Part shown: one piece after another, positions 23,003 to 25,705 of the stretch
Layout of the letters: each line of letters opens with the position of its first letter
How positions within the stretch are numbered: the first letter of the stretch is position 1
Origin: an uncultured bacterium
GTDB lineage: Bacteria; Margulisbacteria; WOR-1; CAVSGV01
Length of the DNA: 32,000 nucleotides
Reading direction: 5' to 3'
NCBI GenBank assembly: GCA_963699255.1
Contig: OY969425.1
Span: forward strand, 1,470,001 to 1,502,000
The notes under the pieces: generated by a model
What the model was told of the DNA's origin: nothing
Database searches by the model: none
Seen by the model: only the letters and a program-made list of their open reading frames with translations
Made by a program: the position numbers and the translations under genes

Positions 23003-25705
23003 ATGAGCGAAGAATTATCTAAAATATATGAGCCGAAAATCGTTGAGGAAAAATGGTATAAGATATGGGAAGAGAACGGTTATTTTGCTCCCGATGAATC
23101 CTTAAAAACCCCGCCGTTCGTCATCGTGATCCCGCCTCCGAACGTTACCGGTTCGCTTCACATGGGTCACGCGCTTGATAACACGATCCAGGATATCCTT
23201 ATCAGGTTCAACAGGATGAAGGGTATGAGGGCGCTGTGGGTACCCGGAACGGACCACGCCGGCATCGCGACGCAGAACGTGGTGGAGAAGGAACTGGCCA
23301 AGGAGAAAAAGAGAAAAGAGGATATCGGCAGGGATAAGTTCATTGAGATGGTCTGGAAATGGAAGGAGAAGTTTGGCGGCCAGATAACGCTGCAGCTGAG
23401 GCGGCTGGGCGCATCGTGCGATTGGAAGAGGGAGCGCTTCACGATGGATGCGGGTCTTTCCCGCGCTGTCAGAAAAGCTTTTGTTTCACTGTATAACGAC
23501 GGGCTCATTTACCGCGGAAAAAGGATAATCAACTGGTGCCCGAGATGCAAAACAGCAATCTCGGATATCGAAGTGGAATACACGGAAGAGAACGGCAAAC
23601 TCTGGCACCTGAAGTATCCTGTCGAGGGGTCGAATGAATTCGTTACTGTTGCCACCACAAGACCCGAGACGATGCTCGGAGATACTGCCGTTGCCGTCAA
23701 TCCATCGGATGCGAGATACAAACGTTTTATAGGCAAGATGCTTGTTCTTCCGCTTGTCGGAAGAAGGATACCTGTGATAAAGGACGACTTTGTCGATCCA
23801 ACTTTTGGGACCGGCGCGGTCAAGGTCACTCCCGCCCATGACCCGAATGACTATGAGATAGGGCTGCGGCACAATCTCCCCCAGATAATAATGATGCATC
23901 CCGACGGGAAGGCCCATGTCAGCCATTTCCCGAAAGAAGAACAAAAAGAGATCGCCTCATATGAGGGGGTCGACCGGTTCAAGCTGAGGGATATCATCGT
24001 GGCTGACCTTGAAAAGGGCGGATATCTGGAAAAGATCGAGGACTACAAGAACAAGATCGGCAGATGCTATCGATGCAAAACTCTCATCGAGCCTTATCTC
24101 TCAGACCAGTGGTTCGTCAGGATGAAAGACCTTGTCAGGCCGGCCATACAGGCCGTTGAAGACAAGAACATCCGGTACATTCCCGACCGCTGGACAAAGG
24201 TTTACTTAAACTGGATGGAGAACCACCGTGACTGGTGCATATCCAGACAGATATGGTGGGGGCACCGCATTCCCGCTTGGGAATGCAAATCCCAAATCCC
24301 AAATCCCAAATCCCAAACAAATCCCAATGACCAAATCCCAAATCCCAAAAAGGGCTGCGGAAACATCATCGTTTCGGAAGAAGCTCCGACAAAATGCCCG
24401 AAGTGCGGCGGAACGAATTTAGTCCAGGATCCGGATGTACTGGATACTTGGTTCTCATCGTCGCTCTGGCCGTTCTCGACCCTTGGCTGGCCCGAACAAA
24501 CCAAGGACCTAGAGACATATTATCCGACAACTGTTTTGGTTACCGGATATGACATTATCACTTTCTGGGTTTCAAAGATGATCGTTATGGGCCTGAAGTT
24601 CATGAAGAAAGAGCCTTTCTCAAAGATATTCATTCACGGCCTGATAAGGGATATTACGGGCAAGAAAATGAGCAAATCGATCGGCAACGTGATAGATCCT
24701 CTGAACGTCATAGACAGGGTAGGGGCTGACGCGCTCCGCTTCTCCCTGATATCGCTGATCTCCGGACAGGGGCAGGATATCAAGTTGTCCGAAGAAAAGA
24801 TCACCGAGGGCCGCAACTTCAGCAATAAGATATGGAACGCGGCAAGGTTCATATTGGGGAAGGTATCGGGTATCAGGCATCAGGGATCAGGGTTTGCGGA
24901 CAAATGGATATTGAGCAGATATAACAAGATGATCAATGAGATCACTGAAAAACTGGAGGAATTCGACCTTGGGGAAGCCGCGAGAAAGCTTTATGATTTC
25001 ATCTGGAGCGATTTCTGCGACTGGTACCTGGAAATGTCGAAGGTCGACGCATCCGAAGAGGTCCTGTTGGAAGTTTTTGAGGGCACAATGAGGCTGTTAC
25101 ATCCGTTCATGCCTTTCATCACGGAAGAAATATGGCAGAAGTTAGAGATCAGAGATAAGAGATCAGAGATTGGAAACGCGAAACATGATAAGACGATAAT
25201 GCTTTCCCACTGGCCGAAGGCGGACAAGTCCTTGATCAATGAGAACATCGAGGATGAAATGGCCGTTGTTAAAGAGATAGTCAGGACGATAAGGAACATC
25301 AGGGCCACCTTGAACATTCCGCATTCAAAGGAACTTACCGCGTATATTTCGACGGGAAAGAAGATCGGCGCTGACCAGGTGAAATACCTGACATCGCTCG
25401 CGAGGCTCGAGAAGCTGGATATATCTTCAAAAACAAGCACAAAGATAGAAGGATCAGCAACAGCTGTCCTTCCAGACATAACCATTCATATTCCGCTCAA
25501 GGGCATAATCGACCTGAACAAGGAAGTTGACCGGCTTAAGGAAAAGATCGTTAAACTTGATGAGGAGATCGATAAAGTAAGACAAAGATTATCGGCGAAC
25601 AATAACGTTCCCGAGGACGTCCTGGATGAGTGGAAGGGCAGGGAGCAGGAGTTCTTAAAGCAGAAAGAAACGCTTCAGGACCAGATCAAGTCTCTGACCG
25701 CGTAA
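23003..25705 (+). CDS. valS: valine--tRNA ligase
   Basis: 900-aa ORF with HIGH-type motif ([13 protein letters not shown]), TRPET, KMSKS, an editing domain and a C-terminal coiled coil. Confidence 0.95.
   Translation: [900 protein letters not shown]
24287..24352 (+). repeat. (AAATCCC)4 AAAC AAATCCC AATGACC (AAATCCC)2 tract in frame within valS
   Basis: Read directly. It encodes [22 protein letters not shown] between Cys codons at 24284 and 24356. Confidence 0.9.

Follow-up and report, generated by a model that had tools for sequence, protein, structure and literature searches.

How a repeat with a unit of seven nucleotides can persist inside the reading frame of a single-copy gene for a core translation enzyme is the question raised by valS, the valyl-tRNA synthetase (ValRS) gene in the stretch of DNA analyzed here (32,000 nt, hereafter the window; contig OY969425.1, positions 1,470,001 to 1,502,000, forward strand; labeled G000, C1:1470001-1502000, in our genome set). 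The G000 genome is a single contig of 1.77 Mb with a GC content of 47.5%. The valS open reading frame (ORF) contains the Pfam domains tRNA-synt_1 (2.8e-149), Anticodon_1 and Val_tRNA-synt_C (the C-terminal arm), and its product aligned end to end with the ValRS of T. thermophilus (PDB 1GAX, E = 2e-239). The gene is present in a single copy, with no second full ValRS match in the genome, and is otherwise normal. The tract of interest, at positions 24287-24352 (66 nt), reads (AAATCCC)4-AAAC-AAATCCC-AATGACC-(AAATCCC)2-AAAAAG and codes in frame for 22 residues located after Cys428 and before Gly451-Cys452. Re-reading the sequence confirmed this composition and translation, which had been reported in a first-pass annotation made from the letters alone, as well as the spacing C-x23-C...C-x2-C formed by Cys428, 452, 465, and 468. 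We consider it likely that the tract is a tolerated, translated passenger copy, in a permissive loop, of a dispersed repeat resembling the Rickettsia palindromic elements (RPEs) and the cyanobacterial short tandemly repeated repetitive (STRR) sequences. It is best read as neither a locally grown microsatellite nor a switch.

The anatomy of the tract bears directly on the question of the frame. Tandem Repeats Finder described positions 24286-24349 in two ways, either as 9.6 copies of a period of 7 (80% matches, score 86) or as 2.0 copies of a period of 32 (score 107). The tract is made of two tandem blocks, which add up as 28 + AAAC + 28 + AAAAAG = 66 nt. The element itself is quantized, with blocks of four 7-nt units followed by a partial unit of 4-5 nt, for a total of about 32-33 nt. 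Since this length is not a multiple of seven, one block spans 11 codons and two blocks span 22, and the puzzle of the frame dissolves. It had been proposed that the length of the tract is under selection. This holds for the reading frame, which must be kept by selection because valS is single-copy, but not for a finely tuned microsatellite length, the tract being two standard dispersed blocks of about 33 nt. Two units used as a probe (AAATCCCAAATCCC, at most one mismatch) gave 4 matches in the window, compared with 0.03 expected from shuffled sequences. The 16-mer AATGACCAAATCCCAA is common to positions 9671-9686 and 24326-24341, in agreement with the earlier observation that the tract shares DNA with an intergenic region. 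The AAAC spacer was also found in another member of the same class (L090) and in two Omnitrophota loci (L123 and L124), and the spacers in the other two-block tracts of G000 are AAAC, AAAT or AATT.

Blocks of this kind are dispersed over the whole G000 genome. The tandem repeats of G000 include 247 period-7 rows. Strict arrays numbered 103 for period 7 and three each for periods 8 and 9, with none in the shuffled sequence, and the heptamer arrays had a modal length of about 32 nt. Out of 97 arrays of at least 28 nt, 38 were intergenic, 29 were at gene edges and 30 were inside ORFs. Hence, 67 of the 97 were outside or at the edge of ORFs despite an ORF coverage of approximately 93% by a crude ORF call. 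In-frame blocks were found in at least 15 other housekeeping genes. The hosts confirmed with Pfam are CysRS, ProRS, the C-terminal part of IleRS, TGT, TsaD, RsmH, DinB, MazG, a class III aminotransferase and a phosphoglucomutase-family enzyme, while others, including LigA, MutL, and DapF, were recognized by eye only. The mazG element at positions 19756-19819 and the valS tract have the same two-block build, and the block at 22955-22990 fits exactly between the upstream stop codon and the ribosome-binding site of valS.

Inserts recur at the same site in related enzymes. We compared 32 ValRS from the same class as the window, and 16 of them had inserts at exactly this site, all in frame. Most of these inserts consist of a single four-heptamer block and measure 33-39 nt, while L090 and the window have two blocks joined by AAAC, for a total of 66 nt. 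Several unit families occupy the site (AAATCCC, AAATCCG/T, AATGWCM, AAAGTCA, and AAGGGNC), as exemplified by (AATGTCC)4, by AAATCCG-AAATCCT-AAATCCT-AAATCCG, and by fourfold AAAGTCA and AAGGGNC. Two inserts are atypical. That of L085 (the valS gene of G025) has a perfect small hairpin, GATCCGCC-TAA-GGCGGATC, nested within the heptamer block, and L108 has two opposed runs of 8-nt units. The hairpin of L085 resembles a second, smaller element that landed inside the repeat. In a ValRS phylogeny from which the insert columns were excluded, the presence and absence of the insert required at least six changes, five of them forced by well-supported branches. One clade of eight ValRS was wholly devoid of the insert, and the unit families were interleaved on the tree. 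Within the family of the window, the insert was present in the window, L045, and L083, and absent from L001, L082, and L084. The single block of L083 (AAAATCCT AATAACC AAATCCC AAATCCC AAAAAA GGA) matches the second block of the window unit for unit; therefore, this block predates the window lineage, which implies either clean loss or repeated gain. A possible GG(A) duplication flanks the blocks in L083, L045, and L088 and is not clear in the window.

The same part of the enzyme is also occupied outside this class. Omnitrophota ValRS have KSQI-type inserts just after their C-x2-C, and in L123 and L124 the insert DNA consists of four units, AAAC and four more units. Two other ValRS (L161 and L174) are devoid of any cysteine knuckle and carry the block directly after GHRIPAWY, which is the same place as in the window. 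The inserts are more similar to each other than the genes that contain them. Those of L098 and L102 were identical over 33 of 33 nt, whereas their flanking valS DNA was 78% identical, with 50-59% at third codon positions. Similarly, the elements of the window and of the Omnitrophota L123 were about 86% identical (a hand count from the alignment), with flanks at 60-62%. Blocks have four landing places in ValRS across the class, after residues ~211, 429, 626, and 716. The protein cluster of the window ValRS had one member, and an exact search of the metagenome contigs with the 33-nt 5' flank of the tract gave no match. As side observations on the gene, a perfect 8-bp inverted repeat, GCATTCCC-GCTT-GGGAATGC (positions 24267-24286, codons RIPAWEC), ends exactly at the insertion point and is found with one mismatch in L045, and the ValRS homolog P0005 has a tandem duplication of a whole segment.

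Identical blocks were also found at different loci and in different genomes. The 28-mer AAATCCG-AAATCCT-AAATCCT-AAATCCG, which we refer to as the G-T-T-G pattern, was exact in five genomes from five families of the class and was detected in 11 genomes when one mismatch was allowed, compared with no matches for a reversed control pattern. It was absent from the other classes of the phylum. Two copies of the 28-mer are in the G022 ValRS, and it was also found at a different ValRS site in G007, beside IleRS-like matches of G037, and in the ileS gene of G000. In the latter (C1:1736542-1739362), the exact 28-mer is in frame in the C-terminal part (KSEILNPKSE).

The exact 32-mer (AAATCCC)4AAAC was present on more than 120 metagenome contigs among the matches listed, and 81 occurrences on 80 of these contigs were analyzed more closely. 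There were exactly four units in 68 of the 81 occurrences. The second block after AAAC was all-or-none, with 28 occurrences having four in-register units and 41 having none. Inverted units, which produce hairpins, followed in 19 occurrences. As in the window, AATGACC was the second unit of the second block in several metagenome copies. Within long ORFs, 37 occurrences were in the sense orientation (KSQIPNP) and 16 were antisense (GIWDLGF). Sense hosts confirmed with Pfam were TsaD, TrmD, SecA (two contigs), MnmA, GatB (L156 and L183), ValRS, LeuRS, an IleRS-like enzyme, PheS, CarB, RpoB, PCMT, and an ABC ATPase. The metagenome TsaD insert was in the same loop as the TsaD insert of G000, and inspection by eye added a second MnmA contig with the block in the same loop (L195) and two further GatB contigs (L198 and L199). 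The antisense hosts confirmed with Pfam were two prepilin peptidases, a P-type ATPase and a GT2 glycosyltransferase. The orientation thus followed the type of host, being sense in soluble enzymes and antisense in membrane proteins. The antisense peptide LFGIWDLGFGI is at the same place in the two prepilin peptidases (L126 and L196; Pfam A24) and was also seen in a further ORF (L146).

The first-pass annotation had also proposed that the tract splits the first cysteine pair of a four-cysteine knuckle, and that its removal would leave C-x2-C. The split was borne out, since the repeat-free orthologs have one intervening residue instead of about 23. The closest of them read AW(T/F)C-G/K/D-CG(E/H)IIV, and the native spacing is therefore C-x-C (C-G-C, C-K-C or C-D-C), to which the window adds 22 codons. 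The proposed C-x2-C spacing was thus not the native one here. It is present in other bacteria, including 1GAX with CEDC...CEAC at the same place. All four knuckle cysteines were retained in every insert-bearing ortholog. The four-cysteine knuckle that follows the WWGHRIPAW strand probably binds zinc; a rubredoxin-like Pfam match at residues 452-469 was below threshold. Among the aligned relatives, only the valS product of G012 (L099) has lost all four knuckle cysteines (AWYKGDEIYVGEEPPKGDGW), while its sister L085 keeps them together with an insert; therefore, the knuckle is dispensable in this class. The ZN domain of LeuRS (PMC13454842) was set aside, as it is an N-terminal module and not this knuckle.

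An AlphaFold2 model of the window ValRS, built on an 81-sequence alignment, had a mean predicted local distance difference test (pLDDT) score of 88.6 and a predicted template modeling (pTM) score of 0.84. The ten-residue blocks with the lowest pLDDT were 431-440 (57), 441-450 (47), 621-630 (66), and 721-730 (54), which coincide exactly with the three segments coded by repeats. Elsewhere, comparably low scores were confined to two short N-terminal blocks (68 and 66). Short strands at residues 425-428 and 455-457 flank the insert, and residues 451-470 scored 88-92. The inserts fall in length-variable columns of the ValRS alignment as well as in these lowest-scoring segments. The model fits a disordered loop protruding from an otherwise intact knuckle. 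At the RNA level, the valS tract was predicted to be unpaired in the mRNA fold (z = -1.3) with no complementary arm in cis, and no Rfam family reached its gathering score anywhere in the window (1-32000). We therefore rejected an RNA structure or RNA gene as an explanation. The coordinates of the features are presented in Table 1.

Table 1. Repeat blocks and landmark codons in and around valS, in window coordinates.
Feature	Position	Strand	Basis
valS (valyl-tRNA synthetase, 900 aa), host gene	23003-25705	+	ORF, translation, Pfam, 1GAX match
Cys428 codon TGC, first knuckle cysteine, adjoins 5' end of insert	24284-24286	+	Invariant in 81-sequence alignment
Block 1, four perfect AAATCCC units; antisense strand (GGGATTT)4	24287-24314	+	Sequence, Tandem Repeats Finder
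Spacer AAAC, 4 nt, between blocks; creates the 32-nt period	24315-24318	+	Sequence, Tandem Repeats Finder
Block 2, AAATCCC AATGACC AAATCCC AAATCCC; homologous to the single block of relative L083	24319-24346	+	Sequence, alignment
Tail AAAAAG (Lys-Lys), completes 66 nt / 22 codons	24347-24352	+	Sequence
Gly451-Cys452 (GGC TGC), second half of split C-x-C pair	24353-24358	+	Sequence
Cys465-Pro-Lys-Cys468, second knuckle cysteine pair	24395-24406	+	Translation, alignment
Second valS in-frame block, GGTATCR/GGGATCA units, 10-residue peptide	24862-24894	+	Tandem Repeats Finder, translation
Third valS in-frame block, AGAGATC units, 10-residue peptide	25142-25174	+	Tandem Repeats Finder, translation
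Intergenic four-unit block AATGACC AATGAAC AATGACAC AATTAAC	22955-22990	+	Tandem Repeats Finder
mazG in-frame two-block element, AAAATCC type, 4 units + AAAT + 4 units	19756-19819	+	Tandem Repeats Finder, Pfam
Intergenic hairpin with heptamer-block arms (4 units + AATT + 3-4 units, plus complement)	9640-9760		Shares 16-mer with valS tract

Taken together, these data suggest the following scenario. Members of the same and sister unit families would be copied into intergenic regions, often as hairpin arms, and in frame into many housekeeping genes; we infer copying because identical blocks are found at different loci and in different genomes. In valS, the copy would have landed at the tip of the first cysteine pair of the probable zinc-binding knuckle, in a loop that appears to tolerate added length. 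The insert would be expressed as a hydrophilic, disordered loop of 22 residues rich in Pro, Asn, and Lys, leaving the four cysteines in place, metal binding presumably retained and the enzyme working, at little or no cost to the cell. Selection would act as a filter, letting through copies with a total length that is a multiple of three, no stop codon, and the strand that gives a peptide suited to the host, that is, a hydrophilic peptide in soluble enzymes and a hydrophobic one in membrane proteins. Occupancy of the loop is probably old and dynamic, with blocks gained, swapped for other unit families, doubled and precisely lost.

Other explanations were weighed against a passenger copy. An in situ microsatellite, in which an old 7-nt repeat at a tolerant linker was rewritten in each lineage by slippage and mutation with no copying between loci, seems unlikely. 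It would account for a site that is occupied across the whole class with lineage-specific units and for the homologous blocks shared by close relatives. Moreover, the heptamer copy number varies between Coxiella strains (PMC4990558) and no transposition signature was seen here. However, it is difficult to reconcile with a copy number quantized at four (68/81; length mode of 32 nt), an all-or-none second block, an internal G-T-T-G variant pattern that is exact at several loci in five genomes, identical inserts in distant ValRS, and the same 32-mer in many unrelated genes and phyla. We also rejected local seeding from the empty site, where TGC AAA TGC resembles one unit, because it leaves unexplained the identical blocks found at other loci of this genome and in other genomes. 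The peptide itself could be the reason for the persistence of the insert, a Lys-rich loop being kept for non-specific tRNA affinity, contact with a partner or localization, as with the CAAD domain. Three kinds of ValRS indeed have an insert in this loop, many hosts are enzymes that bind tRNA or nucleic acids, the insert has a net charge of about +3, and class I aminoacyl-tRNA synthetases provide a precedent for recurrent domain capture (PMC4893482). An adaptive loop nevertheless appears improbable given that half of the class is devoid of the insert, including one whole clade, and that sister taxa differ. In addition, the peptide changes fully with the unit family (KSQIPNP, MTNDKLQ, KSEILNP, GQGSSDK), the same DNA is found in intergenic regions and in the opposite sense in membrane proteins, and AlphaFold predicts no structure in the insert.

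The possibility that slippage of 7-nt units toggles the frame of valS or tunes the amount of enzyme is suggested by a unit that is not a multiple of three within a reading frame, by the run of four perfect units and by the variation among Coxiella strains mentioned above (PMC4990558). Yet phase variation is very improbable. The genome has no other ValRS gene, so switching valS off would be lethal, perfect units number only four in an otherwise interrupted tract, the frame is kept in all 16 orthologs that carry an insert, and the family to which the tract belongs is a passive, dispersed one. An assembly artifact, with the tract or its length resulting from mis-assembly or from long-read indel errors, can be given as little credence. 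Repeats are error-prone and there are apparent frameshifts in ftsH, a formiminotransferase gene, and ileS, but none of the three heptamer blocks interrupts the 2.7-kb valS ORF, relatives assembled independently (one of them with MEGAHIT) have homologous blocks at the same codon, and the identical two-block build is found in unrelated contigs. Finally, the insert could be removed before or during translation, by excision resembling that of an intervening sequence (IVS) or by ribosomal bypass, to give a mature enzyme with an intact C-x-C. Heptamer arrays do flank genes of the 23S-IVS type (PF05635), and RNase III cuts at such repeats in Coxiella (PMC4990558). We find removal barely conceivable, as it would leave the multiple-of-three length, the freedom from stop codons and the match between strand and host unconstrained, whereas all three constraints were observed. 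These constraints suggest that the insert is translated and neither spliced out nor bypassed. The missing complementary arm in cis and the unremarkable predicted RNA fold (z = -1.3) also argue against it.

Several points weigh against the tract being a passenger copy of a dispersed element. For the valS copy, we found neither a clear target-site duplication nor terminal inverted repeats nor a transposase, so the term mobile follows from dispersal only. Part of the similarity between loci could be convergent, as the sequence is of low complexity, and an undiscovered function, instead of tolerance, could explain why one loop is used so often. The assembly also contains the apparent frameshifts in ftsH, the formiminotransferase gene, and ileS, which are probably homopolymer indel errors. 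The ftsH gene (window positions 20100-22043) is in two frames, with the N-terminal membrane part ending near ...EFLKTP and the AAA+/M41 ORF (20790-22043) in another frame. Two overlapping ORFs in different frames, FTCD_N (21952-22821) and FTCD (22547-22954), make up the formiminotransferase gene, with the switch near 22560-22600, at a CCACCC run. In ileS, there is a one-base frame change near position 1738560 of the genome (CTGCTTCTCAAATTT).

Among known systems, the RPEs are the closest in their behavior. The RPEs (Ogata et al. 2000/2002, as summarized in PMC10969869) are selfish repeats found in frame in protein-coding genes. Like the heptamer blocks, they form a dispersed family that is both intergenic and in frame in many unrelated housekeeping genes, and the peptides that they add are at places that the fold can accommodate, with nothing to suggest a needed function. 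However, RPEs are palindromes of about 100-150 bp with a fixed sequence in one genus, while the blocks described here are four-heptamer elements of 32-33 nt, occurring singly, doubled or as hairpin arms, with many unit families in several phyla of uncultivated bacteria. Other copies of the family are hairpins, but that of valS is a direct repeat rather than a palindrome.

In their structure, the blocks are closer to the STRR sequences, or heptanucleotide long simple-sequence repeats, of cyanobacteria, which were reportedly described by Mazel et al. in 1990 and by Mrazek et al. in 2007. The AATGACC unit of the second block is a rotation of the complement of TTGGTCA, which we take to be STRR2. 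Both groups consist of dispersed tandem 7-nt units, mostly intergenic and near gene ends, with a preference for four units. Heptanucleotide repeats are known from cyanobacteria (STRR), Xanthomonas, and Nostoc, and the four-unit preference of GGGAATC and GGGGAYT repeats was ascribed to G-quadruplexes (Rehm et al., 2015; PMC4692102). On the antisense strand, block 1 reads (GGGATTT)4 and so conforms to the G-quadruplex motif of that study. We rejected G-quadruplexes as a general cause of the four-unit rule because the preference extends here to units devoid of G-runs (AATGTCC, AAATCCG, AAAGTCA), which are also fourfold. Unlike the STRR hosts, the bacterium studied here is Margulisbacteria-like and not a cyanobacterium; its closest named ValRS are from Saganbacteria, WOR-1, and Margulisiibacteriota. 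The STRR papers are not known to describe copies in frame in essential enzymes, paired blocks with a 4-nt spacer, or sequences shared exactly between phyla.

Three other systems share some of these features. The TAACTGA direct repeats of Beggiatoaceae, cyanobacteria, and Bacteroidetes (MacGregor, 2015; PMC4679880) consist of one heptamer in arrays of 2-6 copies at many loci in distant phyla, with no visible transfer mechanism. Nearly all of them are upstream of start codons and their unit has forward stop codons, while the blocks described here are translated inside genes. In Coxiella, the 23S rRNA IVS has three tandem heptamers and one degenerate unit beside the S23p gene (PMC4990558), a proximity that is reminiscent of the PF05635 genes of G000 discussed below, although the valS tract has neither a PF05635 gene nor a complementary arm nearby. 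In cyanobacteria, ValRS and other class I synthetases have likewise acquired the CAAD domain repeatedly and independently at fixed sites within the protein, but this domain is folded, serves as a membrane anchor and has a demonstrated function (PMC4893482). A CAAD domain at the ValRS knuckle was considered and dropped, as that paper places the insertions at positions ~750 and 820. Our literature search found no paper containing the peptide or DNA strings and no published description of such an element.

A bolder proposal, which we consider doubtful although worth stating, is that four-heptamer blocks constitute a discrete element, copied actively and spreading from phylum to phylum. Its build would be fixed, with four units, a 4-nt spacer and, optionally, a second block or an inverted arm, its sequence would be more conserved than the essential genes around it, and some machinery would write it into the same loops of translation enzymes. 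This machinery could possibly be the co-occurring IVS-type four-helix-bundle proteins of the PF05635 family. G000 has ten genes of this 23S rRNA intervening sequence type (for example, at 716382-716693 and 1541672-1541971), four of which had a heptamer array within 200 nt, compared with 51 of 550 small genes. Near one of them is a 13-unit TTCTAAC array (1542015-1542109). This association is a lead and not a result. If the proposal were true, a new class of mobile or templated repeat would be at work in Margulisbacteria, Omnitrophota, and related uncultivated lineages, continually remodeling core proteins at their surface loops.

Inserts of this kind inflate core marker proteins and cause them to be misaligned, which matters for annotation and phylogenetics. 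For enzymology, a knuckle that, by its sequence, is split by 22 residues would offer a simple test of the tolerance of a metal-binding knuckle. Three features point to an undescribed copying mechanism, namely the strict quantum of four units, the identical sequences at different loci and in different phyla, and the association of the strand with soluble or membrane hosts, and ValRS provides a natural series of filled and empty sites to study it. Because the natural length of the block is about 33 nt, a 7-nt repeat can live in a reading frame, and essential, slowly evolving enzymes of uncultivated bacteria may carry fast-turning loops derived from repeats.

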